A DNA stretch of 64,000 nucleotides from Balneolaceae bacterium (GTDB lineage: Bacteria > Bacteroidota > Rhodothermia > Balneolales > Balneolaceae): assembly GCA_040880485.1 (NCBI GenBank), contig JBBDIJ010000002.1, positions 51,518 through 115,517 on the forward strand, given 5' to 3'. Below are positions 19,134-64,000 of the stretch, piece after piece. The position numbers were made by a program, and so were the translations under genes. Under the pieces are notes generated by a model. The model was not told the origin of the DNA and ran no database searches. It saw nothing but the letters and a program-made list of their open reading frames with translations. Position 1 is the first letter of the stretch; each line of letters opens with the position of its first letter.

Positions 19134-19214
19134 AGAGCCAGGTTATTGGTATATGCAATATATGTGTAAATAACGCAAATCGAAGGTGAATGCCAAACGG
19201 TAGTTGAAATTTTT

Positions 19215-33754: not shown

Positions 33755-33804
33755 CGTCCCGCTGCTTAGTTGAATTTATAAATCTAACCTGATTATAGAA
33801 GAAG

Positions 33805-34788: not shown

Positions 34789-34895
34789 GAGCCGGGTGTT
34801 ACCTCTTTGTGGATGTTTGAGTACCTTCCCGTTGGGTGCATTAAACACCGGCGCTGAATCGATTCATATTTACTGAACCTTAATCGGACTGGACT

Positions 34896-36275: not shown

Positions 36276-36388
36276 CTGAAAAATTCTAATAATTGTAAAA
36301 AGCTTTTCTACACTCTTTTAAACGCAATAAATGGTAAAACGCACAGCTTCTTTAAACATTAGAATTTTATAATGTTAGAAAATTCTAA
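36276..36388. promoter_or_regulatory. cluster of three dyad sites (TTAGAA-N2-TTCTAA type) upstream of the orphan DUF4402-like gene
   Basis: CTGAAAAATTCTAA (36276-36289), TTAGAATTTTATAA (36359-36372) and TTAGAAAATTCTAA (36375-36388). The last has perfect inverted arms TTAGAA/TTCTAA and recurs exactly at 45395-45408. Confidence 0.4.
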
Positions 36389-36462
36389 TATATTAAACTC
36401 AAGCTCAATAAAGAGACCGACAACGCACGCAGGCACCAGCCACGACTCAGGAGGCAGCCACA

Positions 36463-36897
36463 ATGAAAATTCAAAGAAATTACCGTTTTGCTGCTGCCGC
36501 CATTCTGGTTGCCATGCTTTCGCACCTCTCCGTGGTACAGGCACAAAACTCGGTACAGGCTGTCATGCAGGTATCGGTAGAAGTTGTGTCCGGTGCAACG
36601 ATCCTGAGCAGTTTTAACGAAGACATTTCTGAGCAACTCTATTCGAACGAATCCAGCCAGATCCATTTTGGAGAGTACACGATTACAGTACCGAAAGGGG
36701 CAGAGTTCGCCGCAACAACCGAGAGAGAGGTAAGAATGGATGGCCACGCGGGTTCATTCACTATTCAATCCAAAATGGCTGGCAAGAGCGGTACGGACGG
36801 CAGCGTTACCTTCGAAATCAGTGGCTCCGCCAACGGGTCAGATCTTGCAGCAGGTCATTACAGCGGACGTCAGATTGCCACAGTCGTCTATTATTGA
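36463..36897 (+). CDS. secreted DUF4402/spore-coat-U-like fimbrial-subunit-like protein (orphan, convergent)
   Basis: Signal peptide ending VQAQ. AGGAGG lies 8 nt before the ATG. The mature part begins with alternating hydrophobics (VQAVMQVSVEVV) and the protein ends GHYSGRQIATVVYY. That is the G-x-Y-x-G...Y C-terminal pattern I associate with DUF4402. Confidence 0.5.
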   Translation: MKIQRNYRFAAAAILVAMLSHLSVVQAQNSVQAVMQVSVEVVSGATILSSFNEDISEQLYSNESSQIHFGEYTITVPKGAEFAATTEREVRMDGHAGSFTIQSKMAGKSGTDGSVTFEISGSANGSDLAAGHYSGRQIATVVYY

Positions 36898-39551
36898 CCC
36901 GCGGGCTCTGACTGAGTTTCGGGTACCACACTAATCTCGAGCCCCTCTACAAAGTCGCCTTCGGGCAGGGCACGTACCTTAAATTGAAGCCGGTCGGGGT
37001 TCGAACGTGCATTCAGGAAGGTGAGCTGCGCAGGGTCGATGGCCAGTTCATACTCTCCCGGCGGAATCTCATAGGCGTAAAAACTGCCGTCGGAGTAGGT
37101 ACGTAACTCTTCAGAATAGGGTTCTGCCCCATCTCCGGCATCCGTCTGGTTCAAAAAGAGACGGACACCCGGCAGCGGGTTCCTTCCCTCCTCCGTGTAG
37201 ATAAAAATACGGCCGTCCACGACACCGGACATATAGAGCGGTACATCGATCTGTTTATACTGGTTGGGATCGGTCACCAGGGAGAATTGATCGAATTGCG
37301 GCACGTGCATAGGGTTCAGAAGTGCCCCCTTGTTCACCGACAAGTTATACTGCCGGTAGGGCTGAAGCTGTGTGATGTAGGTGACCCCGTCTTTCTGCGA
37401 GATTACACCGCCACCTCTCTCAATTCTTACGGCGTTTCCGGGCTGTAGCTCGTCGCCATCGTCGTAAGTACCGTTATTGTTGTTGTCCACGTACATGCGA
37501 ATGGCCAGGGCCGACCGGCCGACCTGCTGGCGGTTGGAGGTCAAAAACTGGCCGTTATTAGAGTCGTATCCCAATGAGCCCCGAAGGCTCTGTGTGAACA
37601 CGGTATTGCCCGCTGTGCTCCGAAGATTGGAGTTGGATCGAACGGAACTGAAGTCGAATGTGAGGCCAAACCGCAAGTAGGTAAAGCCTCCGATGAAGTT
37701 TCGTCCCAGGGCGGCCTGAAAACGGCCCCGGTCAAATAGGCTCCGCCCTGCATGGATCTCCAGGTCTTCCAGGCTGTTTCGCGCCGGAGCATAGGTCATC
37801 TGCCCTCTCAGGTAGAGGCCGCGTAAAACGGGATGAACCTCACGGCTTCTCGAAAAACTGTAGGAGCCCGATCCCTGTATCCGTGAGGAGGTAGTAGGGC
37901 TGATTCCGAATGCACCGGTCTGGGTATCGCGGTAACTCATACGGACATTCATCCGCCCCAATCTGCTGTTGAGCTCTATGCGATATCGCGTGGTATTCAC
38001 CGAAACCCGGTTGTCGTGCGTAAGGGTGAGTCTCAGGAAAAGCGGGAATGAATCGGAGAGTGGTATTGGAGTAAAGATAGCCGATTGGATTCGGCTTCGG
38101 CTCCGCCCCGTATTGTAGATACCTCCGAGCTCGGAGAAGTGTGTATAGTCCAGCTGAAAACTTGCCGAAGAGGGGTAGATAACACTACTGTTCAGGCGGT
38201 AAAATCGTGCAGGTGCGGCCTCTACTGTAACCAGATAGTTGGTCATCAGCCTGGCAGAGAGTGCCGTACTGATGGTGGGAAGTTCGTCATGATACGCACT
38301 GAAATACTCTACATTGGCCCGGCCGGTCAGCCAGTTGGTGAAACCCGTGGTCACGGTGCCGTGTCCCATCCAGCTTCTCAGAGAAGTTCCCGGAAGGGGG
38401 GTGTCCATGCGTCCTGCATTCAGAGAGTAGTTTACCTCGCCGGGTGGAAGAAAGTTGAACGGGATCTGCAAACGAGCCTGACGTTCACTCATCTGGCCTG
38501 AGGCCCCATAGGTGCGTACGGTATATTGTGAAATGCCGTATGTGAGAGGCACCCGAAACTGATAGTACCCGTCTTCACTGGTCATTTGATAGTCGATCAG
38601 AGTGTTGTTGCGATAGATTTCAATTTCGGAGGAGGGGGCGGCCGTTCCGGTAAAGAGGTAGTCGTCATAGATGTATCGGGGTTCAATCGGGTCATTGGTG
38701 ATCTGAATCCCGGTGTAGGCTGCCGGCAACAGCCCGTCGGAGGTGCTTTGGCCTGCAGTAATCCGGCTCACCCACTCATTATCCCGAATTCCATAACGCC
38801 AGCGCAGGTTGCTGGAGCGCAGTGTGGAGGCGCTTTGTGAAAAATTACCAAAGAGGCTACCCTGGAGGTCCCCTCCCATCACTTCCGATCCGATACTGCC
38901 TGAGAAGAGATAGCTTGAATTGGTTTGGGAGATATTAGCCGATAGACTGTAGTCCAGGAATCCCGTGTTGAACCGGTTTTGCTGCCGGTCGAATCGCAGT
39001 GGGTAGTACTCCATGTAGATCTGCTGCTGCCGTCGGGTCAGCTGTTCGCGGCGCAGCTCCCGGTTTCGTCGTGCAACCACTGGCATAGTATCGTCAGACT
39101 CAAGAATAAGGCCCAGTGTGTTGAAATCGGGGATAAAGCGGAGCCCGAACAGCTCTTCAAACAGGTCCGGGTGAAGGTAGTAGTCGAGCTGCTCTATCAG
39201 AAAGTCGTTAGCCTCGAACTCAATACGTACGTCGCCCAGTGTGGCGGTGCGGCTATTGAAGTCGATGCGGTAGCGCCCGCGGTCCAGATACTCTCCCGTG
39301 ATCTGCAACCGGCCGTTCCTCACTTCGTAATCGATCTGCAGCAAGCTGAACACCTCTGTGACCGGGATGTAGAACTCCTCGCCGGTATAGAAGGAAGAGA
39401 TGTAGCTGTTTATGACTCCTGCATGGCGGAAATGGAGGAAAACTTCATCGGTATCCGCTACCTGCGCAGAGGCGTTATTTACCGGTCCCCACGCGAGAAA
39501 GAGGATGGCAACAAAGAGAACCCGGTGTATGGTTCTGCGAGGGGCATTCAC
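36891..39551 (-). CDS. usher-like outer-membrane assembly protein with atypical C-terminal beta-sandwich domains
   Basis: GTG start overlaps the chaperone stop (GTGA), and a signal peptide is present. TGTAAPSSEIEIYRNNTLIDYQMTSEDGYYQFRVPLTYGISQYTVRTYGASGQMSERQARLQIPF resembles the conserved usher plug/middle signature. A long Ser/Arg/Tyr-rich alternating-strand region looks barrel-like. The C-terminus has DNNNNGTYDDGDE (SdrD-B/Cna-B-like) and a carboxypeptidase-regulatory-like segment (TYSDGSFYAYEIPPGEYEL). Confidence 0.5.
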   Translation of the reverse strand: MNAPRRTIHRVLFVAILFLAWGPVNNASAQVADTDEVFLHFRHAGVINSYISSFYTGEEFYIPVTEVFSLLQIDYEVRNGRLQITGEYLDRGRYRIDFNSRTATLGDVRIEFEANDFLIEQLDYYLHPDLFEELFGLRFIPDFNTLGLILESDDTMPVVARRNRELRREQLTRRQQQIYMEYYPLRFDRQQNRFNTGFLDYSLSANISQTNSSYLFSGSIGSEVMGGDLQGSLFGNFSQSASTLRSSNLRWRYGIRDNEWVSRITAGQSTSDGLLPAAYTGIQITNDPIEPRYIYDDYLFTGTAAPSSEIEIYRNNTLIDYQMTSEDGYYQFRVPLTYGISQYTVRTYGASGQMSERQARLQIPFNFLPPGEVNYSLNAGRMDTPLPGTSLRSWMGHGTVTTGFTNWLTGRANVEYFSAYHDELPTISTALSARLMTNYLVTVEAAPARFYRLNSSVIYPSSASFQLDYTHFSELGGIYNTGRSRSRIQSAIFTPIPLSDSFPLFLRLTLTHDNRVSVNTTRYRIELNSRLGRMNVRMSYRDTQTGAFGISPTTSSRIQGSGSYSFSRSREVHPVLRGLYLRGQMTYAPARNSLEDLEIHAGRSLFDRGRFQAALGRNFIGGFTYLRFGLTFDFSSVRSNSNLRSTAGNTVFTQSLRGSLGYDSNNGQFLTSNRQQVGRSALAIRMYVDNNNNGTYDDGDELQPGNAVRIERGGGVISQKDGVTYITQLQPYRQYNLSVNKGALLNPMHVPQFDQFSLVTDPNQYKQIDVPLYMSGVVDGRIFIYTEEGRNPLPGVRLFLNQTDAGDGAEPYSEELRTYSDGSFYAYEIPPGEYELAIDPAQLTFLNARSNPDRLQFKVRALPEGDFVEGLEISVVPETQSEPAGQ

Positions 39552-40378
39552 TCAATTTCAAACGTTGTCGAGTGTGAAACCGGCGGCATCTGAATCAGGT
39601 TTCTTGATGAGATATCGCTTCTGGACGATTCAAATGTCACTTCAGCTCTGTAGGTTCCGGCTCCCAGGTCAGTAGCCTGGAATTCGCTTCGGTGATGGTT
39701 GCGGAAATAGACGGAAGTGGAGCTGTTCTGCTCCTGAACAAGCTGGTCGTTGCTGTTGTAGATGCGCACCGTTGCACTCCCCAGAAAGGGGGCGGAACCG
39801 GTTCTCTCCACATCGGTAAATATCATCAGCTGGTCGTTGTTCGTTTCGGCGCTCACGCTGTGGATCTGAAGGCCGGTGTTCGGACTTCCGACTTCAAGTA
39901 GTACGGCTGTAATCTGGTCGACCTGAAATGCCACCCTTGCGGTGACCCCTTCCGTCTCTTCTCCGATCGGTGGGGTTACCATGTTGGAGGAGACTCTCAT
40001 CCGGGTCCAGTAGATACCATCCTCCAGGTTTCCGGGGGGACGTCCCACGAGGCGAACGGTCTGTCGTTGTCCGGGTTGCAGCACAAAGGTAGTGGGGAAG
40101 GCTCGGAGCCACTCCTGCAGGGAGTACCGCTCTTCTGCCTCCCCGTCGTCGTAGTTGAGGGTCACATTGCCGTTCTCGTCGGTTTGCGGATAGGCGAATT
40201 CGAAGGAGAGGCGCACCTCGACCGGCTCATTAGCCGGATTGGAGACATAGAAGGAGCCGACGCCGGAGCTCTTTTCGAGAAAAACGGCGGTAGGAGAAAT
40301 AGTGACCTGAGCCAGTGCAGTGCCTGCGGAGAGAAGAAGAAGCACTATTCCGGAGAGAAGTAGTCGTTTGGGTTTCAT
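39548..40378 (-). CDS. PapD-like periplasmic fimbrial chaperone
   Basis: Signal peptide ending ALAQ. VTISPTAVFL...FYVSNPANEPVEVRL...FPTTFVLQPGQRQTVRLV parallels the PapD N-domain pattern (IxPTRxI, LxVxN, PPxxxLxPGxxQxVR). The length fits two Ig-like domains. Confidence 0.5.
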   Translation of the reverse strand: MKPKRLLLSGIVLLLLSAGTALAQVTISPTAVFLEKSSGVGSFYVSNPANEPVEVRLSFEFAYPQTDENGNVTLNYDDGEAEERYSLQEWLRAFPTTFVLQPGQRQTVRLVGRPPGNLEDGIYWTRMRVSSNMVTPPIGEETEGVTARVAFQVDQITAVLLEVGSPNTGLQIHSVSAETNNDQLMIFTDVERTGSAPFLGSATVRIYNSNDQLVQEQNSSTSVYFRNHHRSEFQATDLGAGTYRAEVTFESSRSDISSRNLIQMPPVSHSTTFEIE

Positions 40379-40455
40379 GGGTTCGTTTCGTGAATGTCTT
40401 GCCCTGCCTGACGGTTGGAAAAGTCTGTAAAAAATGAGCTACCGCAATTATAATC

Positions 40456-40490
40456 AAAAAAAAGGCTCCATGAAATGAAGCCTTTTTTTT
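40456..40490 (-). terminator. hairpin terminator/attenuator between the major-subunit gene and the chaperone gene
   Basis: A8-GGCTCCA-TGAAA-TGAAGCC-T8: a 7-bp stem with one mismatch, flanked by an A8 and a T8 run. It lies in the 137-nt gap after the stop at 40516. Confidence 0.55.
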
Positions 40491-40515
40491 CTGATTTTCC
40501 GTACGTTCTATCGGT

Positions 40516-41031
40516 TTAGATACCAGTGTATTGAACCGTTATAGTCAGGTTCGACCCGTTCGTGTTGGTGGTGCTGTAATCTCCCGCTACAGTAGCTGCG
40601 TCCAATGCTCCACCAACCGTGAATACCAGAGGGCCAGTTGAAAGATCGAAATCGGTTCCAGCCGGCAGTACCTCGGTGTTGCCGCTATTTTCGAAGATGG
40701 AGGGAGTAAAGGTCAGGGTGTTGGTACCGTCACCATCGGCCAGTGTGGCTGTTCCGAAGGATATGGCGGCATTTGCATCTCCGGCAACTGTAAAAGCACC
40801 GGTCTGAGCGTTCTCCCCGACATTTTCATCGGGGTCGTCGCTCGCGTTGGCGTTCAGATAGGCGCCGCTATTCTGAGAGATGGTTCCGAAATTAACGTTT
40901 GTAATGTCGGAGAACGTAATAGCAGCCTGAACGTCTGCCGCTACCTCGATATCCTGAGTGGATTGAGCCTGTGCCTGTACAGTAAATACGATGGCGATTA
41001 CCAGGATCGGGGCAATGATTAATTTATTCAT
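40516..41031 (-). CDS. DUF4402-like secreted protein, candidate major filament subunit
   Basis: The ATG at 41031 gives MNKLIIAPILVIAIVFTVQAQAQ (signal peptide). The mature protein is Ala/Thr/Gly/Asn-rich with NVNFGTI, GAFTVAGD and a C-terminal GDYSTT...LTITVQYTGI. It has its own upstream region and downstream terminator. Confidence 0.6.
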   Translation of the reverse strand: MNKLIIAPILVIAIVFTVQAQAQSTQDIEVAADVQAAITFSDITNVNFGTISQNSGAYLNANASDDPDENVGENAQTGAFTVAGDANAAISFGTATLADGDGTNTLTFTPSIFENSGNTEVLPAGTDFDLSTGPLVFTVGGALDAATVAGDYSTTNTNGSNLTITVQYTGI

Positions 41032-41098
41032 GGTCTGTAGGATTGGTTGCGCGTTTAAAATCTTCAATGAAAGTTTATTGCTATTTTCGGTGCCGCCC

Positions 41099-41116
41099 AA
41101 GTTAGAAGCCTTTAAT
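41099..41116. promoter_or_regulatory. proximal copy of an 18-nt repeat AAGTTAGAAGCYTTTAAT upstream of the major-subunit gene
   Basis: AAGTTAGAAGCCTTTAAT, with one mismatch to the copy at 41209-41226. It contains the dyad-like TTAGAAGCCTTTAA. Confidence 0.4.
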
Positions 41117-41208
41117 TAACAAGCTCTAATGTCAGTAGCTTTCCGTTTTTAACCCATGCATTTTTTTCTGTAGATATAGAGATGATATCAGGTTCCCTGC
41201 CCAATCCA

Positions 41209-41226
41209 AAGTTAGAAGCTTTTAAT
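41209..41226. promoter_or_regulatory. distal copy of the 18-nt repeat; its minus-strand reading contains TAACTTTG
   Basis: AAGTTAGAAGCTTTTAAT, one substitution away from the perfect palindrome TTAGAAGCTTCTAA. The reverse complement of 41207-41214 is TAACTTTG, which matches the Bacteroidetes -7 consensus TAnnTTTG. Confidence 0.4.
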
Positions 41227-41261
41227 ATATACGATGCATGAGGGTGAGTAGAAAAGTGGAC

Positions 41262-41798
41262 TCAATCGTAGAGGATGTCGAGTACAATCTCTCCGGAGTA
41301 GGTTGCATTCGGGATATTGCCGACCTCTACTTCACCATAGAGATAGAGGAATACAGAGGACCAGTTCTGCCCCGGTGCGTTGGGAGGGGGCTGAATGGTA
41401 ACATCCTCCGTTGGGAGTGTGAAGGGGCGAGCCAGCCTGTAATCATTCACGCCGAAATCGACCAGAGCCGCCTCCATCCGGATAGGTATGGTGGCCGTAA
41501 TCGCCGGGTCGGTGGCGGTCAGCCTCTCGGGAAGGTTCAGCGTGAAGTGCAATCGCTGGCCTGTGAGGCCATTGATTCCGAATACGCCCATGCCCATATC
41601 TCCGAGTTCAACCCGGCTTATACCATTGCCAGCCACGACGCTCCCGAAGGAGAGGTTGCTCTCTACAGTGGCATTGACCTCCGAGGGGACCTCAATCTCT
41701 ACGGTCAGGAACTGGCCACTGAGTTGAGGGGGTACCCAGAGGGAGAGCAGTAGTGTGAGAATGGGTACCGGGAGGGTGTGTGTCACCTTCCTACACAT
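41262..41798 (-). CDS. DUF4402-like secreted protein (minor subunit candidate)
   Basis: Signal peptide ending LSGQ. SNLSFGSVV and C-terminal ATYSGEIVLDILYD. 8-nt overlap with the upstream gene. Confidence 0.5.
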   Translation of the reverse strand: MCRKVTHTLPVPILTLLLSLWVPPQLSGQFLTVEIEVPSEVNATVESNLSFGSVVAGNGISRVELGDMGMGVFGINGLTGQRLHFTLNLPERLTATDPAITATIPIRMEAALVDFGVNDYRLARPFTLPTEDVTIQPPPNAPGQNWSSVFLYLYGEVEVGNIPNATYSGEIVLDILYD

Positions 41799-42399
41799 CG
41801 GCCTGTTCGTAATAGATGGTTACCGTAATGGTGCCCTGGTAGTATCCGGCGTCCACATTTCCGACGTCGATGGTTCCGTAGAGGTAGAGGTATGCGTTCT
41901 CGTTCACCAGGCTCTGATCGAAATCAAGCGTTGGAGGGGGTGGGGGAGGCCCGGGAGCGTTTTGCAGCCGTCCCAGTATGGGGAATCGGGCGTTTGAAAA
42001 GTTGTTGACGACCGGAATGTACTGGGAGTCGCCCAGGTTGTTCTCTCCTCTGTTGGCATAAGCTGCCTGCAAGTTGAAAGGGATGCTGCAGGAGGGGTCT
42101 CCGCTGCAGGCGGCATTCCCTTCGAGAAGGAGCTCTCCGTCTGCCTCTATCTGAACAAAGGCATCCAGATAGTTTACACCTGTGACCATCAGGGCTTTCG
42201 CCTGGGGCAGTTCCACTTCATAGAGGCCGCCACCAGTTACAATGGGCCCTTCAAAGACCAGGTCATCCAGAGAGAGCTGGTCGAGTGTGATGGTATAGCT
42301 CTCATACTGGCTGAAAGAGAGCTCCTGCCCGAATCCGCTCTTTGCCACAAAAACAAGCATCAGAGAAGCGGCAAGGATATGTTTGCAGAAGTGCCTCAT
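41791..42399 (-). CDS. DUF4402-like secreted protein with Cys pair and poly-proline insert
   Basis: Signal peptide ending GFGQ. C-terminal GYYQGTITVTIYYEQADV, plus CSGDPSC and APGPPPPPPT inserts. The track start at 42402 is TTG. I use the adjacent ATG at 42399, which shares one nt with the upstream stop. Confidence 0.45.
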   Translation of the reverse strand: MRHFCKHILAASLMLVFVAKSGFGQELSFSQYESYTITLDQLSLDDLVFEGPIVTGGGLYEVELPQAKALMVTGVNYLDAFVQIEADGELLLEGNAACSGDPSCSIPFNLQAAYANRGENNLGDSQYIPVVNNFSNARFPILGRLQNAPGPPPPPPTLDFDQSLVNENAYLYLYGTIDVGNVDAGYYQGTITVTIYYEQADV

Positions 42400-42977
42400 C
42401 AATTGTACTCCACTTCCAATGTAAACTCCCCTTCATAGGCTCCGGTGGTGGCGTCTTCCAGATTGACGAGCCCTCCGATCCAGAGGTAGAATTGGCCTTC
42501 TTCGTTAAACTGATACTCCCGGCTGTCCGGCTCCAAAACCTCCGCCGTGTCCTGTTCGTCGAGATAATTTCCAGCTACATCGAACCGGATGCCAAGAAGG
42601 CCGGTGCGCTCGATGTTTACCATTTCCCGATTGCGCAGCCAGGTGACCTGAAACGAGGAACCAGGTGATCCCTGGGCCACCATCTTTCCCGCCCTGGGGC
42701 TCAGAACCGGGTCTATATTCAGCTCCCTCTGATCTGCTTGCAATTCACTGAAATCCATACCCTGTAGCGTGACCACTTCAAGCGACTGCAATACGCTGGC
42801 ACTCACCTGAATGGTAATGATCTCCTGCTTTCTGTCCTCGCTCTGGGCGGCCAGTTTTGAGGGAAACAGAAAGGCCGGAACAAGACAAAGAAACCATGCC
42901 ACAGGAAGCAAATTATGCAAACTCACTTGTATCCCGACGGAGAGAAGAACCGGCTTTATTTTGTTGCGAAAATTCAT
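42399..42977 (-). CDS. DUF4402-like secreted protein (minor subunit candidate)
   Basis: C-terminus GAYEGEFTLEVEYN matches the GxYxGxFxVxVxYN ending I recall for DUF4402 proteins. Long N-terminal signal/anchor ending KLAAQ. The track start at 42992 is TTG, so I prefer the ATG at 42977. Confidence 0.5.
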   Translation of the reverse strand: MNFRNKIKPVLLSVGIQVSLHNLLPVAWFLCLVPAFLFPSKLAAQSEDRKQEIITIQVSASVLQSLEVVTLQGMDFSELQADQRELNIDPVLSPRAGKMVAQGSPGSSFQVTWLRNREMVNIERTGLLGIRFDVAGNYLDEQDTAEVLEPDSREYQFNEEGQFYLWIGGLVNLEDATTGAYEGEFTLEVEYN

Positions 42978-43058
42978 GCCCAAAGATCGCAAGAAGCAGA
43001 CGCGTCCCCTAATTAAGCTTTTTTAACACGAACCCTGATCGGCTACAGTGAAGCCACC

Positions 43059-44111
43059 CTACTCATAGATACTTGTGGCCGTGTATTTGCGGCCGGCGCC
43101 GTTTACGTTGGCTGATGCTTTTTTTGCATACTCTATGGCCTGGCAGTCGTACTGAATGTTCACGTTACCGCTAATACCGACATCCATAGTTCCTATATCA
43201 TTTGTATTACCGATCAGCATCGAACCGTTAATACTGGGGGTCCCCTTGGCAGAGAGGGAGAAGGCGTTTTCGAAGATCACCAGGCCGTTGAATGTAAAGT
43301 TCCCTCCCAGATCCAGCTCACCTTCCATCTCCAGCTCTCCGTTGGTCCGGATTACCAGGATACCATATCCCTCACTGGCACCACCCTTTAGTTGGGTAGA
43401 GGAGGTGACAAAGAAGACACCGGGATTATCGGCAGAGCCAAGAGGTTCATTCACGTTACCTCCGAGAAACTGTGCCCCAGGTTGCTCCTCCAGCCTTTGA
43501 ATCATTTCTGTGACATCATCGAAGTTGAGAGCAGGGTCGACCTCGATTGCGGGATCTCCATCAATCTGGCTGGCATATCCCTCCACTTTATCTTCGCCTT
43601 CGGCGCTCTGTACCGCTACACCGGGCCCATCTTCACAAGTCATGCTGGCGTCATTGCCGCTAATGGATGCAGAAGCTCCGTCTATGCCGAAGGTAAAATC
43701 GTCGGTAGCGATACCGATCGCCCCATTGAAATCCGGTAAGAAGTGCAACTCCTGAAGTTGATAGGTGACGTTGATCGACTGTTCCTGGTCGCCCACGGTA
43801 CCTGTAGCACGGAGGCGGTAGGTTACGTCATCTTCGTCGGCCGGGTCGGCGCAGTAGATAAACTGCACGATGGCGGTTCCCTCATCCAGCGCGTAGGTCA
43901 GGCTGCCGTCCTGGGTGCACACTGTCTCGTCCTGCATCATCTGGTGAATCGTGAGCTCCAGGGCAGAGTGTGCGATATTAGAGGATTGGGTGCGTTCAGC
44001 GTATCCGGTACTGTGCCGGGAAAGGCCCAGAACCGTGTCCTGAAGGCCCGATTGTGTGATTCCGACGGAGAGAAGCACGCCGGATACGATAATGAGCATG
44101 GCACGTCCCAT
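43059..44111 (-). CDS. PilX-N-like pseudopilin-like protein with beta-helix-like C-terminal part
   Basis: N-terminus MGRAMLIIVSGVLLSVGITQSG followed by NIAHSALELTIHQM resembles the PilX N-terminal domain. The C-terminal GYGILVIRTNGELEMEGELDLGGNFTFNGLVIFENAFSLSAKGTPSINGSMLIG resembles the repetitive end of PilX-like proteins. Confidence 0.45.
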   Translation of the reverse strand: MGRAMLIIVSGVLLSVGITQSGLQDTVLGLSRHSTGYAERTQSSNIAHSALELTIHQMMQDETVCTQDGSLTYALDEGTAIVQFIYCADPADEDDVTYRLRATGTVGDQEQSINVTYQLQELHFLPDFNGAIGIATDDFTFGIDGASASISGNDASMTCEDGPGVAVQSAEGEDKVEGYASQIDGDPAIEVDPALNFDDVTEMIQRLEEQPGAQFLGGNVNEPLGSADNPGVFFVTSSTQLKGGASEGYGILVIRTNGELEMEGELDLGGNFTFNGLVIFENAFSLSAKGTPSINGSMLIGNTNDIGTMDVGISGNVNIQYDCQAIEYAKKASANVNGAGRKYTATSIYE

Positions 44112-44171
44112 ATCAGCTCCATTTCATTTTCAGGTTATAGGTCATTTCATTCTTCACGGCTGGAACCGGTT

Positions 44172-44825
44172 TTAGAGGTCCAGGTTGGGCGGTACAATGG
44201 TTTTTCGCCATTGGGAGGCGGGAAACCGCACCTCCCCGCCCGGCATACCCACCCCTTCCCGGGGCTGGGTCTCTACAAATATTTCGATCCGTCGTATTTC
44301 ACTCATGTCAGATGCGGCTATCGGGAACGTCATTGGAGTATTGCTGCCAGCAGTATAGTACTGCAGTTCAAAACGTGTAACCCCAATTCCGATGTTGGTA
44401 ACTTCGTCCGTGGTGGCCCCGGTCACAATGCTGCCACCCGGGGTGTCAATCACCATATTACTGGAGACGATTCGCTGGAGAATTCGGTGATCCGGGTTTC
44501 CGCTTCCGGGAACCATCTGGTCGGTGTAACCCCACATGACAATCGGAGGATTTCCGGCAAGGACCGGATCGGCTTCTACGTTGGCTTCAAATGCGATGGT
44601 GTCGGGTGTGGCCAGAAAAATTGGAGAAGAGATTGCTCCATCGATATCATAACCGGCTTTCTGGAAGTCGAATAGAAGCATCTCGTAAACCGCTTCTATA
44701 TGGGTTTTGGACATCTCATGAAGTGCAAGGTCGGAGGAGTGCTGGCCCAGACGCAGATTGAGTGTGGCGATCATCAGGATCAGCACACCTGAAATGATAA
44801 AGCTCATTGAGAGTCCGAGGTTCAT
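44172..44825 (-). CDS. PilW/GspJ-like pseudopilin-like protein
   Basis: Single N-terminal hydrophobic helix (MSFIISGVLILMIATLNL). LLFDFQKAGYD and VTRFELQYYTAG...IRRIEIFVETQ resemble minor-pilin beta-sheet signatures. There is no GFTLIE motif. Confidence 0.35.
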   Translation of the reverse strand: MNLGLSMSFIISGVLILMIATLNLRLGQHSSDLALHEMSKTHIEAVYEMLLFDFQKAGYDIDGAISSPIFLATPDTIAFEANVEADPVLAGNPPIVMWGYTDQMVPGSGNPDHRILQRIVSSNMVIDTPGGSIVTGATTDEVTNIGIGVTRFELQYYTAGSNTPMTFPIAASDMSEIRRIEIFVETQPREGVGMPGGEVRFPASQWRKTIVPPNLDL

Positions 44826-44837
44826 ACCTTTACTTCC

Positions 44838-45356
44838 TCAGTCGTGATTGTAGGTTCGTACATAGGCCACCCGAACAGGATTGGTCAGAGAGGGGTTGGT
44901 TACCGTGACCACCATTCGTTTATGCCGGGTACGTATAGTGGTGGGAGTGGCCGGATCGTCCTCCGTAACATAGTGTACCTCTGCTGAAATCTCATACGGG
45001 CCCAGGTTGGTATCCATCACCTCTTCCCAGCCGTGGTACCCTTCATATGAAGCTATATCGCTGCGGTTGCCTGCCGTCGTATGGGGGAAATTGGGGGCGG
45101 CAAACTCTTCGGGCATCTGAATCGGAATGTGTCCATCTACTGTAACACTGTCGAAGGGACGCAGGAGGGCCTCCTCAATCAGATCCTGGCCCAGAGTGAC
45201 CGCCAGCATCTCCACTTCCGACGCCACCTGCTGTTGGGTGTTGGAGAGCATATAGCGATTGGTGGATAGAAGAATGATCGAGAAAATCACCATCGCCCCC
45301 ACCACCTGTATCACTTCTGCGTATCCGTTCATATCATTTCCGTTATGAGCTGTCAT
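44838..45356 (-). CDS. PilV-like pseudopilin-like protein
   Basis: N-terminus MTAHNGNDMNG-YAEVIQVVGAMVIFSIILL: a Gly followed by a hydrophobic helix, with Glu at +3 rather than the canonical +5. Small globular C-terminal part. Confidence 0.35.
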   Translation of the reverse strand: MTAHNGNDMNGYAEVIQVVGAMVIFSIILLSTNRYMLSNTQQQVASEVEMLAVTLGQDLIEEALLRPFDSVTVDGHIPIQMPEEFAAPNFPHTTAGNRSDIASYEGYHGWEEVMDTNLGPYEISAEVHYVTEDDPATPTTIRTRHKRMVVTVTNPSLTNPVRVAYVRTYNHD

Positions 45357-45394
45357 GAAGGCCCCGACACTGCAATGAGTTCGGTACCTTTTTA

Positions 45395-45408
45395 TTAGAA
45401 AATTCTAA
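45395..45408. promoter_or_regulatory. dyad TTAGAAAATTCTAA upstream of the pseudopilin-like genes
   Basis: An exact copy of the site at 36375-36388 (the identical stretch is the 15-mer TTAGAAAATTCTAAT). It lies about 40-50 nt upstream of the ATG at 45356, in the 153-nt gap after the adhesin gene. Confidence 0.4.
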
Positions 45409-45509
45409 TGAATTAGGTTCAATCTACAAAATTTCATCAGTAATTCCATCCTGATCATTCAATGTGAACGTAAATGTTATCGTAGTCAATACATTTCATA
45501 CATACCGAC

Positions 45510-48500
45510 CTATTCAATACGAGTCATCTTTCGGTTTAATACCCCTTCCGAAGTCACCAGGCGAACAAAATAGACTCCGCTGGCGATCGACCCTCCGTTC
45601 CACGGCAGTTCATAGTATCCCGCCTCCTGCCGTCCGCGGAGCACGGTCTGAACCCTGCGTCCCAGAATATCGTAGATCTCGATGCGGACATCGGTTTCCA
45701 CCGGCAGGCCATAACGAAGTGTGGTTGATCCGGCAAAAGGGTTTGGATAGTTGCTCTGTAACACCAGGTGATCAGGTATTCCGGCCGCGTCGGCTCCAGG
45801 GTCTATCACCATGACAAAACGGGCCTCACTACGCAGGCCGGTAATCTTGCGAACCAGACTGAATGAACCGGGACGATTCACGTGCGGTTTGGCAGCCCCT
45901 GCCGATGAGAGCGTAAAATCGTACCAGCTGTTCTGCCTCATATCCACTTCGCCTCCGGTATTGCGGTCAATTAGCCGGAGCGACCACTCCTGCGGGAGAT
46001 TTTCAAGTTCCGGCCAGGAGAGGGTGGCTTCTCCCTCCATCCAGTTGCCGTTACGAACCCCACCCACCTGAATCGGAATTTCTATGGTTCGGCCAAACCG
46101 GCGCGGCAAGTTGCGGATCGCCAGTTCGGTGCCGTCATCCAGAAGAGAGTAGACCTCTACCCAGGTATCGGTTCCAAACGGGAGGAGGCGGTAGGCATCC
46201 TGGTCGTCCAGCTTGTTGCTGCCCCCCTCCGTGAAGGAGAAGTGCGTGGATTGGGAGAGTCCGTCTGATGTGAGCTCGAGTGCAATCACGGGTGGACTCT
46301 CCGGCTCTGCGGATTCGCGATAGAAAGTTCCGCCTGTGGTTTTAGAGACTTTGCGAACCCGGAGGGAAGGAGCCCCGTTTCCGTTTGCCTTGACCCAGAA
46401 TCCCTGGAAAGGGGCAATTTTACCCGACCCGAGCGAGCCAGCCGACCCGTTCCATGTGAGATATTGGCCGCTTGTTTCGTCCCACACGTAGATCGTGTTG
46501 TTCATGTTCGTTTTTTGCCAGGTTCCGTCGTCCCAGTCGATGGCAGCAGCGAAGGGGTTGGCCACCAGGTTCCAGCCCGTGTCGGCCACGGCAGTGTACG
46601 TAACCGGAAGGGCGACCTCGGTTCCGTTTCCGTCATGCTCCTCTCCGGTCACCTCCAGTGTTTGAGGCAGCGGGTCGTTGTAGCGATTGTCTTCCGGGAT
46701 ATCCCCGAAAAAATATACGAAGTAGCCGCGACCTGGTGTGACCGTGTCTGAGGCATCGGCAGGTGCCCTCCAGCGCTGATTGTCGGTCCCCGGGTGAGAC
46801 TCCTGATACCAGAGTACGTTCGGTTGCAGTGTGTCGCTCTCCGTATCGTAGAGGTCGGCACCGGGATAGCCCTGTGTGAGGGTTCCACCCAGAAGGTCAG
46901 AGACGCTGGATATGATCGGGCTGCCGAGCAGTCTCCAACCCCGATTTCCTGATATCTCCCTCTGCATCCGGAGGTTTTCCGTAGTGCCTGATTTGTTGTT
47001 GGCCACCAGGCTATAGCCAGATGGGATATCCAGTAGCCCATTCTGCAGTGTGAGTGTGCCGTTCACCACCAGGTCGTTGTTAAATGTGACCGATACACCG
47101 TTGTTGATAGTGAGGTTATGGATCGGGCTGAACCCGCTCACTTCCTGCGCAGCGGTTCCGTTGAACTCAACATCGGTGTCGGTGAGCAGAATGTTTGAAG
47201 TGGTTGCATCGATGCTGCCTCCAAATCGAAAGGTAGATCCGTTTCCGGATAGGTTACCGTCAATAGTGATCTGGTCAATCATGACCAGTTCGGATCCCGT
47301 TTCATTATTCAACGTCTGTCCGGTGTTGACGCTCAGGTTCAATGAGGCCTCCAGATAACCCTCGTTCACAACATCACTCTGAATAAAAATCTGATCTCCT
47401 ACAAGGTTGGTCGAGTCGGAAATCGTCAGACCTCCTGCCCGCTCCAGATAGATATCAGAGGTACCAGCTGTAATGTTTTTGATATTAATCGGGCCAAATA
47501 GCTCAACTGTCGCTTCGTCGGCAATTAGCGTCCCGCTTCCTGAAATCTCCTGGTGGATCGTCAAAAGACGTCCGGAGTTGAGATTGATGGTTGCATCCTG
47601 GTGGATCACCAGAAAGTCGATCTCGACATCCAGCTCATCAATGAGCGGAAAGTTTTGACTTTCAGCCGGATTGGTCGGAATGATGACTACCTGGCCTGTA
47701 GTTGGAACTCCAAGTTCCCAGTTTCCTGCCTGCTCCCAGATTCGACTATTTGCGGGGTTCCCTCCGGCGCTGGTCCATGTGTTGAACTGTGTAACGCTGA
47801 TCACTGCGTCGTTGGTGATGGCACTGCTGTTGACGGTTCCAGTAACGGTCACCGACTCCATTGCCATACCAGCGGTCAGGGTGGCGGTGTAGATCCCACC
47901 CCCCTGATTGGTAACGGCAGAGAGTGAGCTGTTGCTGCCACCGTCGTCCAGGGTCACGGTGTCGTCTCCCTGGGTTCGAAGGTTTCCAAAGGCGTCCCGA
48001 ACTTCAACGGTGATGGTGGTGTTGTCTGTCCCGTCGTTCTGGAGGAAGGAGGTGGCTGGGGTGATGGTGGTTGTGGCGGTACTGGCCGGACCGGCGACGA
48101 CGGTGAACAATTCACTGGTTCCGCTCTCCGAAAAGCCCGATCGTCTTGCGGAGATCGAAAAATTGCCGGCGGAAGAGAGTGTAACACTGTGGGTGTTCAG
48201 AACACCCTCTGTGAAGGTAGCAGTGGTGCCGCTGCCGGACGAGATGGTTCCGCTTGAAGTGATGACCGTGGTAGCTCCGCTACCATCAAACGACTCCACA
48301 ATGTTGTCAAAAGCGTCGAGAGCAGTGATCCGTATCGGAAAGATCACACCTGCGGTCTGCTCTCCAATGGTCCCGCCTGTTTCCGCCTCCACCAGAAAGG
48401 TGGTGAGGGCGCCAAAGGTAAAGTTGACCAGCACATTTCCGGAAGTGATTGTCTGGCTGTTTACACTGGCGCCAATCTCGAAATTTCCTACCTCACCGGG

Positions 48501-50537
48501 AGCGGTAATTGTGGCACTCCAGGTACCGTTGCCTGTATAGACAGGGGTGCTGATAGTGAGCTCAGCGGCCAGGTCAAAGATCTGGACCAGGTTCTGGTCG
48601 TCCTCTATCGGGTTGCCAAATTCGTCTCTTAGCTGAACCGTCACTTCTGCCTCGCTGGAGCCGTCGGCAATCAGAGTGTCTGTGTCGATAGTGATAATAG
48701 AGCTATCGGGATCGGCCGCCGCGGCCGAAACGGTGAATTCATTGGATGTGCCGGTCTGAGGCCCGTCGTTGTTCACAACGAAAACCGTGTGTGTGCCGCT
48801 CTCGATGAGGGCCACCGGATGGGTCGCAATTCCGTCGGTAAAAGGGATGGTGGTATTGGTGGCGCCGGACAGGGTGCCGGTAGTGGAGAGGGTGACTTCT
48901 CCGTTAAATTCATCAATCAGGTTGTTGTTGCCGTCCACCGCACGAATCGAGAGGTCGAATGTCTCGCCAGCTGTTTTGGAGGAAATGATCTCCTCATTTC
49001 CATTCACCAGCTCCCAAATGTTAAACCGGGAGAGTTTACCACTCTCCACGACTATAAATGGAATACTTGTCGTACTCTGCAAGTCAGTACTCACCGCTTC
49101 CAGCCGATACTCCAACGTTGAGTCGGGAGGCTGGTCCACTGCGATGTTGTCGAACACCGACCGCCCCTCGATGTCGGTGTCTACCGAGGTGGTGCTCAGG
49201 TGGAAGCTACCGTTACTGTGATTGATCCGAATCAGGTTCAGCTCCACCGTGCGTCCTGCCTCCTGGACCAGGTTTTCCCAGGCGTCCACCAGGCGGACAA
49301 TGGGCGGTGGTTCAATGGTGCTCTGCCGGTTGGCAGATCGGGGTAGGGTGGTAAAGATCAGGCTGTCGGCTGCGGCCGGCACAATGGTAACAGGATCTGA
49401 AGTGATGGAGAGAAGGCCGGGTGCGGTGAATCGGAGGTCTATCTCGCTCGCCAGGGTGTGGAACAGGTCATTGAAATCGTACTGGGCCGAGCTGTTTTCC
49501 AGGCTGGTGGTTCCCTGCAAGGTTCCACTGCCGGATAGCCGGGCTGCGGTTACGGTTCGGGCAACCCCGTCGGTTACGCGGTTGCCAAAGTTGTCATGGA
49601 CCTCTACCCGGAAGAGGTCCATCACCTCGCCGGCATCATATTGCGGGCTGGCGCCCAGGTCGGAGGGTTGATCGGTGAGCACGAGCCGGGTCGCTTCAGC
49701 CGGTACAACTTCGATCTCACCGGAAGGGAAGGGCGTGAGGCCGGTGATCTGAGCGCGGATGTTGGCCGTTCCTGTTCGTGCACCAATCATTGTGGCGGCC
49801 TCCCCATCCCCGGCGGCTACCAGGTCGGCCTGTTGAATCTCTCCGGTAATATTGGTCAGATCCCAGGTGGCCGATCCGGGCGATTTAAAGTTGTTGAACT
49901 GGTCCCGCACCACAGCATAGACGTCCAGGGAGTTTCCGGCTGGCAACTCCTGGAATGCGACGAGGGAGCCACTACCGTCGGGGGCTGATTCCACCCGTAC
50001 ACCCGCGTCGGCACCGGCCACTTTGGTGACCTGTGCAAAGCTGGTGGAACCCACCGCAATGGCAGGACCCGATGCGGTGACATTGAAGTCTCCCAGATGG
50101 GTACCGCTGGTCGGCCGAAGCCGGAAATTGGAAAAGGTGGCCTGGCCGGCTCTTCTTGGCGGGTCATTGCTCGTTGACGTTACCTGAAAGGTGATGGTGG
50201 AAGCGGTCCGGCTCACATACTGGATGGCGAGTTTCGTGTTGCCGTTGAAGCCGGGCGCCACATTGATCGCAACGGCAGGGGCCGTTCCGCCGGTATCCCA
50301 TTCAAATCCACTGGGCGCGTTAAAACGGATTTCACCCAGCACGACCTGTCCCGCCGAGGTTTCGGTTATCACAGGGCCGTTCATCAGGGTGTTGTATGTA
50401 CCACCGACGTTATCTGCACTGATGATCACGGGGGTGGCCGGCTGCACCTGTTGTGCATCGGACACAGCGGCTCCTGCAAGCATGCCGAGAGTCAGCATCA
50501 GAAGGGTGGAAAGAGCGGTTGAAATGCGGAGGTTCAT
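45510..50537 (-). CDS. giant (1675 aa) Ig-repeat surface adhesin, T9SS cargo
   Basis: Signal peptide MNLRISTALSTLLMLTLGMLAGAAVSDAQ. Seven roughly evenly spaced D-x-(F/W/N)-x-N motifs (VRDQFNNF, VHDNFGNR, VDAWENL, VDGNNNL, LRDEFGNP, LDAFDNI, VRDAFGNL) are typical of bacterial Ig-like repeats. The middle is Asn/Gly/Thr/Ile-rich and beta-helix-like. The C-terminus is a T9SS sorting domain. Confidence 0.8.
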   Translation of the reverse strand: MNLRISTALSTLLMLTLGMLAGAAVSDAQQVQPATPVIISADNVGGTYNTLMNGPVITETSAGQVVLGEIRFNAPSGFEWDTGGTAPAVAINVAPGFNGNTKLAIQYVSRTASTITFQVTSTSNDPPRRAGQATFSNFRLRPTSGTHLGDFNVTASGPAIAVGSTSFAQVTKVAGADAGVRVESAPDGSGSLVAFQELPAGNSLDVYAVVRDQFNNFKSPGSATWDLTNITGEIQQADLVAAGDGEAATMIGARTGTANIRAQITGLTPFPSGEIEVVPAEATRLVLTDQPSDLGASPQYDAGEVMDLFRVEVHDNFGNRVTDGVARTVTAARLSGSGTLQGTTSLENSSAQYDFNDLFHTLASEIDLRFTAPGLLSITSDPVTIVPAAADSLIFTTLPRSANRQSTIEPPPIVRLVDAWENLVQEAGRTVELNLIRINHSNGSFHLSTTSVDTDIEGRSVFDNIAVDQPPDSTLEYRLEAVSTDLQSTTSIPFIVVESGKLSRFNIWELVNGNEEIISSKTAGETFDLSIRAVDGNNNLIDEFNGEVTLSTTGTLSGATNTTIPFTDGIATHPVALIESGTHTVFVVNNDGPQTGTSNEFTVSAAAADPDSSIITIDTDTLIADGSSEAEVTVQLRDEFGNPIEDDQNLVQIFDLAAELTISTPVYTGNGTWSATITAPGEVGNFEIGASVNSQTITSGNVLVNFTFGALTTFLVEAETGGTIGEQTAGVIFPIRITALDAFDNIVESFDGSGATTVITSSGTISSGSGTTATFTEGVLNTHSVTLSSAGNFSISARRSGFSESGTSELFTVVAGPASTATTTITPATSFLQNDGTDNTTITVEVRDAFGNLRTQGDDTVTLDDGGSNSSLSAVTNQGGGIYTATLTAGMAMESVTVTGTVNSSAITNDAVISVTQFNTWTSAGGNPANSRIWEQAGNWELGVPTTGQVVIIPTNPAESQNFPLIDELDVEIDFLVIHQDATINLNSGRLLTIHQEISGSGTLIADEATVELFGPINIKNITAGTSDIYLERAGGLTISDSTNLVGDQIFIQSDVVNEGYLEASLNLSVNTGQTLNNETGSELVMIDQITIDGNLSGNGSTFRFGGSIDATTSNILLTDTDVEFNGTAAQEVSGFSPIHNLTINNGVSVTFNNDLVVNGTLTLQNGLLDIPSGYSLVANNKSGTTENLRMQREISGNRGWRLLGSPIISSVSDLLGGTLTQGYPGADLYDTESDTLQPNVLWYQESHPGTDNQRWRAPADASDTVTPGRGYFVYFFGDIPEDNRYNDPLPQTLEVTGEEHDGNGTEVALPVTYTAVADTGWNLVANPFAAAIDWDDGTWQKTNMNNTIYVWDETSGQYLTWNGSAGSLGSGKIAPFQGFWVKANGNGAPSLRVRKVSKTTGGTFYRESAEPESPPVIALELTSDGLSQSTHFSFTEGGSNKLDDQDAYRLLPFGTDTWVEVYSLLDDGTELAIRNLPRRFGRTIEIPIQVGGVRNGNWMEGEATLSWPELENLPQEWSLRLIDRNTGGEVDMRQNSWYDFTLSSAGAAKPHVNRPGSFSLVRKITGLRSEARFVMVIDPGADAAGIPDHLVLQSNYPNPFAGSTTLRYGLPVETDVRIEIYDILGRRVQTVLRGRQEAGYYELPWNGGSIASGVYFVRLVTSEGVLNRKMTRIE
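45513..45767 (-). other. T9SS C-terminal sorting domain (type A) of the giant adhesin
   Basis: The last 85 aa are LVLQSNYPNPFAGSTTLRYGLP...IEIYDILGRRV...GYYELPWNG...SGVYFVRLVTSEGVLNRKMTRIE. They carry the NYPNPF, IYDxxGR and GVYFVRL hallmarks. Confidence 0.7.
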
Positions 50538-50598
50538 ATACGGTTCACACTCCTGCTAAAGTTTCTGTAAATTAAGCAGATATCGCCCCCAAAGGGAA

Positions 50599-50612
50599 TT
50601 AGAATACTTTAA
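50599..50612. promoter_or_regulatory. degenerate dyad-like site in the divergent adhesin / rhamnose-operon promoter region
   Basis: TTAGAATACTTTAA, preceded by a C-rich tract (CGCCCCCAAAGGGAA) as in the copies at 41099 and 41209. Only one arm is conserved. Confidence 0.25.
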
Positions 50613-63932: not shown

Positions 63933-64000
63933 TGGGAATGTTTCTTTTCGGTGTGGTTAGATTTTTCTATTTCGGGATCGCTCTCTTCTGTTCGGGTTGA

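Follow-up and report, generated by a model that had tools for sequence, protein, structure and literature searches.

The gaps between the genes of one locus in the stretch of Balneolaceae DNA analysed here raise the question of how those genes are co-ordinated. The stretch (64 kb of contig JBBDIJ010000002.1, with a G+C content of ~0.53 throughout; the window hereafter) carries genes predicted to encode a chaperone-usher pilus system beside an adhesin of the Type IX secretion system (T9SS), and an AT-rich dyad recurs in the gaps of this pilus locus. The unit of the dyad is a 14-bp palindrome, TTAGAA-NN-TTCTAA, with the core TTAGA-N4-TCTAA, and is often extended to ATTAGAA-NN-TTCTAAT. Our results indicate that the dyad is a locus-specific, promoter-associated cis-element, which is conserved across the Balneolaceae. 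As claimed in a preliminary description of the window, it precedes five transcription units, namely those of the orphan subunit, the major subunit with the chaperone and usher, the minor subunits, the pseudopilin-like genes and the adhesin. We propose, with a probability of about 0.6, that the dyads are the binding sites of one dimeric, sequence-specific transcription factor, encoded outside the locus, which would co-ordinate the pilus locus and the adhesin.

All eight sites quoted in the preliminary description are present at the coordinates given there. The perfect 6-2-6 palindrome TTAGAAAATTCTAA occurs at both 36375-36388 and 45395-45408, where the shared identity reaches the 15-mer TTAGAAAATTCTAAT, and the remaining sites are TTAGAATTTTATAA (36359-36372), CTGAAAAATTCTAA (36276-36289), TTAGAAGCCTTTAA (41102-41115), TTAGAAGCTTTTAA (41212-41225), TTAAGCTTTTTTAA (43013-43026) and TTAGAATACTTTAA (50599-50612). 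Could such an AT-rich word simply recur by chance in AT-rich gaps? The gaps of the locus are indeed poorer in G+C (0.39) than the window as a whole (0.53), and several of the eight sites were recognised when one to three mismatches were allowed. However, six of the eight match TTARAANNTTYTAA with at most one mismatch, and these six matches fall within 1,064 nt of locus gaps, for which a first-order Markov simulation matched for AT content gave a mean of 0.11; none of the 2,000 simulations reached six. The other 30 gaps of the window (3,328 nt) contain no match (Fisher p = 2e-4), which agrees with the earlier impression that the dyad is absent from other intergenic regions. Similarly, TTAGAANNTTYTAA, again with at most one mismatch, is found at six distinct sites in the window, where whole-window shuffles predict 0.27 matches. 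The hexamer TTAGAA is itself scarce, with 10 occurrences on both strands of the 64 kb against 22 expected, and nine of the 10 fall in gaps of the pilus locus. A further 10 kb of the same contig, to the right of the window, contains neither a dyad nor a regulator gene.

Comparison with relatives allowed us to judge the specificity of the dyad in 1.5 Mb around the locus and 74 kb of the source genome. With a usher profile, 80 Balneolaceae loci were fetched, from Rhodohalobacter, Gracilimonas, Balneola, Fodinibius/Aliifodinibius, Halalkalibaculum and many metagenome-assembled genomes (MAGs); together with the window they make up 81 loci and 1.505 Mb. The strict dyad (at most one mismatch) occurs 60 times in this DNA, and 52 of the 60 occurrences are intergenic, against an intergenic share of 12.5%; nearly all of the 52 are at promoters of the pilus locus. 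Among 60 palindromes with the same base composition of the arms, for which the median number of intergenic hits was 2, TTAGAA had 52, spread over 35 loci, and the runners-up, TTAAAG (19) and TTAAGA (16), are variants found in the same sites. When a relaxed dyad was counted within 200 nt upstream of genes, it was present before the orphan subunit in 28 of 29 loci, the major subunit in 42 of 59, pp172 (the first helix-protein gene) in 17 of 27 and sub197 (the first minor subunit gene) in 22 of 51, compared with 1 of 64 for the chaperone, 1 of 39 for the E1a gene of the neighbouring 2-oxoacid dehydrogenase and 18 of 187 for other genes. The consensus across loci is palindromic, with two equivalent half-sites, and the family-wide conservation of position gives the dyad the look of a shared transcription-factor binding site. 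The preliminary description would have given up its motif if it were equally frequent in unrelated AT-rich intergenic DNA or were not conserved at orthologous loci; instead, the dyad is infrequent in such DNA and its sites are kept in the orthologous loci, although the proteins of these genomes share only 40-55% identity. Therefore, with the AT-matched simulations, the composition-matched control and a conservation of position that reaches 97% of orthologous promoters, chance recurrence is already refuted. One weak dyad of the window, TTAGATTTTTCTAT (two mismatches; 63957-63970), lies 25 nt upstream of a gene at the window edge whose product has the 5-enolpyruvylshikimate-3-phosphate (EPSP) synthase fold (MurA/AroA-like), and is probably due to chance.

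At the promoter of the major-subunit operon, on the minus strand, the dyad is doubled. A 28-bp palindrome of two abutting 14-mers, TTAGAGCTTGTTAA followed directly by TTAAAGGCTTCTAA on the gene strand (class D; 41102-41129), abuts a -33-like TTG, and 54 loci carry the corresponding element TTAGAnnnnTTTAATTAAAnnnnTCTAAcTTGG at a distance of ~90 nt before the start of the major-subunit gene. Its outer arm, TTARA, is conserved in 43-48 of the 54 loci, though it was not used in site selection. The putative core promoter (41069-41100, minus strand) consists of the TTG (41100-41098), a 20-nt spacer and TAAACTTTC (41077-41069). In the 54 loci, TTG-N20-TAnnTTT follows class D at a fixed distance and is itself followed by a purine-rich block. 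This is the layout of Bacteroidetes sigma-A promoters (-33 TTTG / -7 TAnnTTTG; PMC9723704), a pattern which describes the promoters flanked by the dyads and not the dyads themselves. The enrichment of TAnnTTTG in Balneolaceae upstream regions is weak overall (59 occurrences against 43 for the reverse complement), and therefore all -33/-7-like boxes discussed here were derived from local alignments of orthologous upstream regions. As the -7 box of Flavobacterium spans -12 to -5 (PMC9723704), the two dyads of class D would be centred at ~-43.5 and ~-57.5. An upstream copy, TATATTAAAAGCTTCTAACTTTGG on the gene strand (class E; 41206-41229, minus strand), lies 110 bp upstream of class D, of which it is a 21-nt direct repeat at a spacing of 110 in the window. 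The class E element cATTAAAGAAnTCTAAA is exact in 13 loci (the window and 12 others), 97-112 nt upstream of class D with a mode of 110.

A different arrangement is found on the plus strand, upstream of the orphan-subunit gene. Here two dyads stand in tandem with a 16-bp period, as TTAGAATTTTATAA-TG-TTAGAAAATTCTAA (class C; 36359-36388), and this arrangement, with the period exact and no fewer than 20 of the 27 specified bases matched, recurs at 28 of 30 orthologous orphan promoters, some of which have a third unit. The proximal dyad directly abuts TATATTA (36389-36395, plus strand), a -7/-10-like box with the consensus TATATTG in relatives, where it is conserved in nearly all of the orthologous orphan promoters aligned. 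The start codon of relatives lies as little as ~20 nt beyond TATATTG, so this is most likely the -7 box of the orphan promoter; it fits the flavobacterial -7 variant TAnnTTGY (PMC9723704) and the TATATT box of E1a promoters. Further upstream is an auxiliary element, AAATTCTAATAATTGTAAAA (class A; 36281-36300, plus strand), made up of one dyad arm, TTCTAAT, and TTGTAAAA. It overlaps the site at 36276-36289, which had been counted as a copy of the dyad; a dyad-like word is indeed present there, but it is really part of this different and more strongly conserved 20-bp element, AAATTCTAATnnTTGTAAAA. Both this site and the one at 43013 are poor matches to the dyad, yet they lie inside elements conserved at orthologous positions (classes A and F). 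Class A is the best-conserved element of all and varies less between genera than the dyads do: 16 loci match TTCTAATNNTTGTAAAA exactly, 26 of the 28 loci with the orphan gene match it with at most three mismatches, and the element is always 96-100 or 110-111 nt upstream of the proximal dyad. In the alignment of the orphan upstream regions only class A and the dyad blocks are conserved, whereas the 57 columns between them are not. The element is asymmetric, with TTCTAAT and TTGTAAA in direct orientation, 9 nt apart. The orphan leader (36427-36461) also carries, just before the start codon, a 17-nt direct repeat with a spacing of 18 nt (ACGCAGGCACCAGCCAC and ACTCAGGAGGCAGCCAC), which, in contrast to the remainder of the gap, is GC-rich.

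Phase variation is common in pilus loci, and paired elements ~100-110 bp apart at two promoters could also point to a phase-variation or architectural system, either a promoter segment inverted by a recombinase or a Pap-like methylation/Lrp switch with two sets of sites ~100 bp apart. Class A and the distal dyad arm do form an 11-nt perfect inverted repeat with 67 nt between its copies. Nevertheless, no recombinase or methylase gene is present in or near the locus in the 81 genomes, the repeats enclose a segment of 67-80 bp, which is too short and has no recognisable promoter inside, and the orientation of this segment is identical in close relatives (for instance in the loci L007 and L009). 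The sites contain no GATC or other methylation motif, and classes D and E are direct rather than inverted repeats. We therefore regard a switch of this kind as improbable.

The remaining promoters carry the dyad in simpler or less regular forms. Upstream of the minor-subunit genes is TTAAAAAAGCTTAATTAGGG (class F, gene strand; 43007-43026, minus strand), which is degenerate in the window; the orthologous consensus, cTCTAATTAAAAnnnnTTAACTGG, has the same layout as class D, and in Balneola class F is a full double dyad, TTAGAAcgTTCTTA directly followed by TTAAAAagaaTTAAC and TGG. Upstream of the 172-aa gene is a single perfect dyad, TTAGAATTTTCTAA (class G, gene strand; 45395-45408, minus strand), 38 nt from the annotated ATG, and its orthologues, in which TAT(a)TT follows the dyad, lie 10-65 nt upstream of the start codon. 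Lastly, the 88-bp divergent region between the adhesin gene and rmlA contains TTAAAGTATTCTAA and then ttcccTTTGG on the adhesin strand (class H; 50599-50612, minus strand), 13 nt from the rmlA ATG. The orthologous support for class H is thin and comes from one other locus, L060, with TTAGAGtgGTCTAA ~95 nt upstream of the adhesin gene.

Two further observations were made near such promoters. A second promoter-like pattern, GTAACA-N13-18-CTCTT, which resembles the -35/-10 pair of an extracytoplasmic-function (ECF) sigma factor, lies 60-185 nt upstream of the first helix-protein gene and upstream of the class G dyad in 13 loci; it is placed between the adhesin stop codon and pp172 (L029, L036, L041-L046, L055, L062, L073 and L078). 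There are three other intergenic matches to it in 1.5 Mb, and it is not evident in the window. In addition, two loci (L031, 21761-21774; L045, 20698-20711) have a dyad immediately before a sugar-transferase gene (Bac_transf, PF02397) that neighbours alaS; in two other genomes with the same gene, the dyad is not clearly present. This gene may, judging from the position of the dyad, be an extra member of the regulon.

The nearness of some sites to start codons (38 nt for class G, 13 nt from the rmlA ATG for class H), and the fact that palindromes could form hairpins, might suggest that the sites act in RNA, as a leader structure or the target of a small RNA in the 5' untranslated regions. However, there is no Rfam match in the region with E < 0.3, and the RNAalifold consensus of 18 orthologous orphan leaders reaches only -1.2 kcal/mol, with a double change at one of seven pairs and essentially no covariation. 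The hairpins would be made up of A-U pairs alone with 2-nt loops, and class D lies upstream of the putative -33 box and would not be transcribed. A role in RNA is thus very improbable.

The positions of the dyads relative to the boxes suggest how a bound factor might act. At the major-subunit promoter, one or two abutting dyads lie immediately upstream of the -33 TTG, and the layout is the same at the minor-subunit and adhesin promoters; by the placement of the boxes, the centres at ~-43.5 and ~-57.5 would correspond to the positions of a class II/class I activator. At the orphan and pseudopilin-like promoters, the dyads abut the -7 box (TATATTG) and would cover ~-13 to -42, where a bound protein would occlude or replace the contacts of sigma, which is a repressor-like position. 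Because the sites take up two positions with respect to the core promoter, some upstream of -33 and others across -33 and the spacer, a simple model in which the operator means repression does not fit all of them. The same factor could activate the structural operons and keep the accessory genes silent, or act the other way round, and the fixed distance of classes A and E, ~100-110 bp upstream, would suggest co-operative binding or DNA looping. The preliminary description had read the dyad as the operator of one dimeric regulator for a whole island. What stands of this is a shared cis-element at five promoters. The sites are not single operators, since they are organised as a 28-bp double palindrome, as tandem dyads with a 16-bp period and with auxiliary elements ~100-110 bp upstream; the island, discussed below, does not stand either, and one regulator is what we infer from the shared element.

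Several points weigh against a single dimeric factor. The assignment of activator and repressor positions depends on boxes derived from alignments, and the consensus of house-keeping promoters in the Balneolaceae is loosely defined. Class A, the most conserved element and yet an asymmetric one, may bind something other than the factor of the dyads. No regulator gene was found in or beside the locus in the 81 genomes, nor was the binding protein found, and the only nearby helix-turn-helix (HTH) gene, in the locus L017, proved to be a neighbour of a paa operon. Finally, the right arm of the dyad, TCTAA(T/C), always stands beside a promoter-like box (TCTAAC-TTGG in class D, TTCTAA-TATATTG in classes C and G, TTCTAATnnTTGTAAAA in class A), and part of the conservation could belong to the promoter itself.

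The last point can be carried further, in that the dyad or its arm would be part of the promoter. In that case RNA polymerase, or an alternative sigma factor dedicated to surface-structure genes, would take the place of a separate regulator and recognise it as an extended -33/-35 or UP-like element. TCTAAT resembles the -35-like TGTAAT of E1a promoters, the AT-rich sites of class D would be at -40 to -60, where UP elements lie, and the failure to find a regulator gene would be in keeping with such an element. Yet the dyad abuts the -7-like box in classes C and G and is 24 nt away from it, with the TTG in between, in class D; its distance to the box differs between classes and it is therefore not a promoter element of fixed position. 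Palindromy, tandem copies and copies 100-110 bp upstream are not characteristics of sites for sigma or for the C-terminal domain of the alpha subunit, composition-matched AT-rich palindromes are not enriched, and the house-keeping promoters of E1a and alaS have no dyad. We consider a promoter element of this kind unlikely and continue to favour the binding sites of a dimeric transcription factor.

The search for this factor covered the window and the neighbourhoods of the related loci. A Pfam search of all 56 open reading frames of the window placed no regulator gene inside the locus, as had been noted from reading alone, and clustering of 555 unlabelled neighbour proteins from the 81 loci gave no conserved regulator. 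LexA (18474-19133) is the only transcription factor encoded in the window, and its upstream region (19134-19214) contains an AT-rich stretch, TTACACATATATTGCATATA, and no TTAGAA dyad. The gene in L017 encodes a 147-aa HTH_18 protein (AraC-type, MarA-sized) in the slot of the orphan gene, with a dyad-like word upstream. It was rejected as the regulator: it has only three homologues in 5.8 billion proteins, is found beside paaABC genes in another contig, and its conserved upstream word differs from the dyad.

The form of the site offers some leads, as dimeric HTH regulators use 14-bp palindromes of this kind. Regulators of the NarL/FixJ family can act as activators and as repressors, and within one promoter they recognise heptamers in inverted, direct or single arrangement. 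Read as ATTAGAA-NN-TTCTAAT, the dyad has the 7-2-7 form of NarL-type sites, and its consensus, TTAGAAnnTTCTAA, fits the RcsB box position by position. That box is published as TN(G/A)GAN4TC(T/C)NA, and RcsB boxes are reported to give both increased and decreased transcription. However, RcsB reads GA/TC, whereas the Balneolaceae sites conserve the outer TTA/TAA best and vary to A/T at G4/C11, and no response-regulator gene is linked to the Balneolaceae locus. The PrfA box of Listeria is another site of 14 bp, found ~40 nt upstream of the transcription start site, and marks every promoter of one virulence gene cluster. The 14-bp palindrome of the Balneolaceae resembles it in length, and the proximal dyad of class D would be centred at ~-43.5, with the start site taken from the -7-like box. 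A PrfA box of the form TTAACANNTGTTAA would share the outer TTA...TAA triplets and the 6-2-6 layout, and the sites of FNR are arranged 5-4-5, like TTAGA-N4-TCTAA. Nonetheless, the inner bases differ, the Balneolaceae dyads also occur as abutting pairs, as 16-bp tandems and overlapping -33 and the spacer, the dyads of classes C and G would be centred at ~-19.5 and -35.5, unlike class II Crp/Fnr sites, which are centred near -41.5, and no Crp/Fnr gene is linked to the locus. The fits to the RcsB pattern and the PrfA geometry are leads to a NarL/FixJ-type or Crp/Fnr-type factor and not tests of one.

The enterobacterial chaperone-usher fimbriae offer a parallel in architecture. They are controlled by Rns/CfaD-type activators with proximal and distal sites, or, in the case of the pap switch, through two sets of sites ~100 bp apart. 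The Balneolaceae arrangement resembles this in having a promoter-proximal site and a second site ~100-110 bp upstream, with one factor proposed for several promoters of a cluster. The genes for Rns/CfaD-type regulators lie within the fimbrial operon or next to it, and the proteins, which are of the AraC type, recognise AT-rich sites that lack symmetry; pap depends on Dam methylation. In contrast, the Balneolaceae sites are palindromic and without GATC, no regulator is encoded in the locus, and the only AraC-type gene seen, that of L017, belongs to a paa operon.

The dyad word is also used elsewhere. A scan of metagenomes with ATTAGAANNTTCTAATAT gave, among the 120 loci listed, none with genes of the pilus locus, and the matches lay in unrelated, mostly AT-rich DNA. 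In four GC-rich metagenome contigs (59-65% G+C; L114, L143, L157 and L170), the promoter of a gene for an ArsR/SmtB-like HTH protein of 118 aa is overlapped by the palindrome ATATTAGAAnnTTCTAAT, which in four others precedes genes for membrane-fusion or outer-membrane proteins of resistance-nodulation-division (RND) efflux systems (L101, L106, L115 and L174). From their settings, these copies look like operators of unrelated regulators using the same word. As the word is found at ArsR-like and RND-efflux promoters in GC-rich bacteria, it does not by itself identify the family of the transcription factor.

What, then, would the factor regulate? The locus begins beyond the genes for the E1a, E1b and E2 components of a 2-oxoacid dehydrogenase (32654-36143, plus strand) with the gene for the orphan secreted subunit (36463-36897, plus strand; 144 aa, with a weak match to DUF4402, E 0.009). 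On the minus strand follow the genes for an outer-membrane usher of 886 aa (36891-39551), a putative periplasmic chaperone of 276 aa (39548-40378), which has a weak match to PapD_N (E 0.007) and adjoins the usher in all loci, and the major subunit (40516-41031; 171 aa with a signal peptide), whose protein cluster, cluster 0, is at this position in 59 loci. Three minor subunit genes (41262-42992; 178, 203 and 197 aa), three pseudopilin-like genes (43059-45356; 350, 217 and 172 aa), whose products have an N-terminal hydrophobic helix, and the gene for an Ig-like adhesin of 1675 aa (45510-50537; Invasin_D3, Big_1 and, as C-terminal T9SS sorting domain, Por_Secre_tail) complete this strand. The genes rmlA, rmlD, rmlC and rmlB run from 50626 on the plus strand.

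The usher was recognised from its structure. Sequence searches (Pfam, PDB, NCBIfam) leave the central proteins of the locus unnamed: the pseudopilin-like proteins have no family match in Pfam or NCBIfam, and for the chaperone and subunits there are no PDB or NCBIfam matches beyond the weak ones to PapD_N and DUF4402. The 886-aa protein has a counterpart with 100% identity, annotated as hypothetical, in a Balneolaceae MAG. In a structure search with its AlphaFold2 model (pLDDT 81.6), the top Foldseek matches were the FimD and PapC ushers, with E-values of 3e-27 to 1e-16 and a probability of 1.0, over the barrel and the flanking domains. Since the model matches FimD and PapC over its whole length, the regulated genes are, as far as the modelled fold of the usher tells, a chaperone-usher pilus system joined to a T9SS adhesin. 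A literature search gave no papers on DUF4402 and nothing relevant on the motif. Chaperone-usher pili have been described mainly from Proteobacteria. A homologue of the T9SS protein PorV is encoded at 7846-9006 of the window, 28 kb from the locus and with no dyad upstream; it is consistent with a working T9SS for the adhesin.

The term island, used for this region in the preliminary description, does not hold. The G+C content of the region (0.52-0.59) is like that of its flanks, there are no mobility genes, and the same gene order and neighbours recur in 80 Balneolaceae genomes, where the ushers are 38-55% identical to that of the window. Mapping by tblastn with the proteins of the window gave a common order in nearly all loci (adhesin, three helix-proteins, three minor subunits, major subunit, chaperone, usher), with the orphan-subunit gene on the opposite strand after the usher in ~30 loci, and with the 2-oxoacid dehydrogenase genes, alaS and often rml as the usual flanking genes. 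By its family-wide synteny with the same neighbours, the region is therefore a core locus of the Balneolaceae, vertically inherited and not of foreign origin. There are variations: many relatives have a usher with a C-terminal SPOR domain, and two loci (L012 and L016; ~13.6-15.2 kb) carry one additional gene each for the major subunit and the chaperone, placed downstream of the usher and before the orphan subunit, which is a partial duplication of the assembly genes. In 13 Gracilimonas-type loci (L036, L037, L041-L044, L049, L055, L074, L078, L080 and others; ~13.6-15.1 kb), rpoN lies just downstream of the usher on the opposite strand, in the place taken by the orphan-subunit and 2-oxoacid dehydrogenase genes of other genera; the dyad sites themselves showed no sigma-54 promoter motif. 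Beyond the Balneolaceae, the distant relative L203 has the same gene order, including the T9SS-sorted adhesin, and the N2-spaced dyad was not found there.

In kind, the arrangement we propose is an ordinary bacterial one, in which one regulator acts through a palindromic site at several promoters, and it is unusually well supported by comparative data. With it, an uncharacterised locus for a surface appendage, which is conserved in the whole of the Balneolaceae, gains a concrete cis-regulatory code; this understudied family consists of halophilic, marine and soda-lake members of the Bacteroidota/FCB group. The motif, its position weight matrix and its fixed geometry supply bait sequences for finding the regulator and a basis for defining the regulon. 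The control of the chaperone-usher system is all the more worth understanding because this system goes unrecognised in sequence databases, is joined to a T9SS adhesin and belongs to a kind described mainly from Proteobacteria. More speculatively, and with a slim chance of being right as a whole, the dyads, the 16-bp tandem period and the elements 96-111 bp upstream might together form a looped nucleoprotein switch. Through it, a single master regulator would set two groups of genes in opposite senses, with the structural genes for the major and minor subunits and the adhesin in one group and the accessory genes for the orphan subunit and the pseudopilin-like proteins in the other. Both groups would belong to a Balneolaceae-specific, never-described hybrid organelle, in which a chaperone-usher pilus bears a T9SS-secreted adhesin at its tip or has it as a partner. 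If this were true, the looped switch would be a new pilus regulatory circuit in the Bacteroidota/FCB group.

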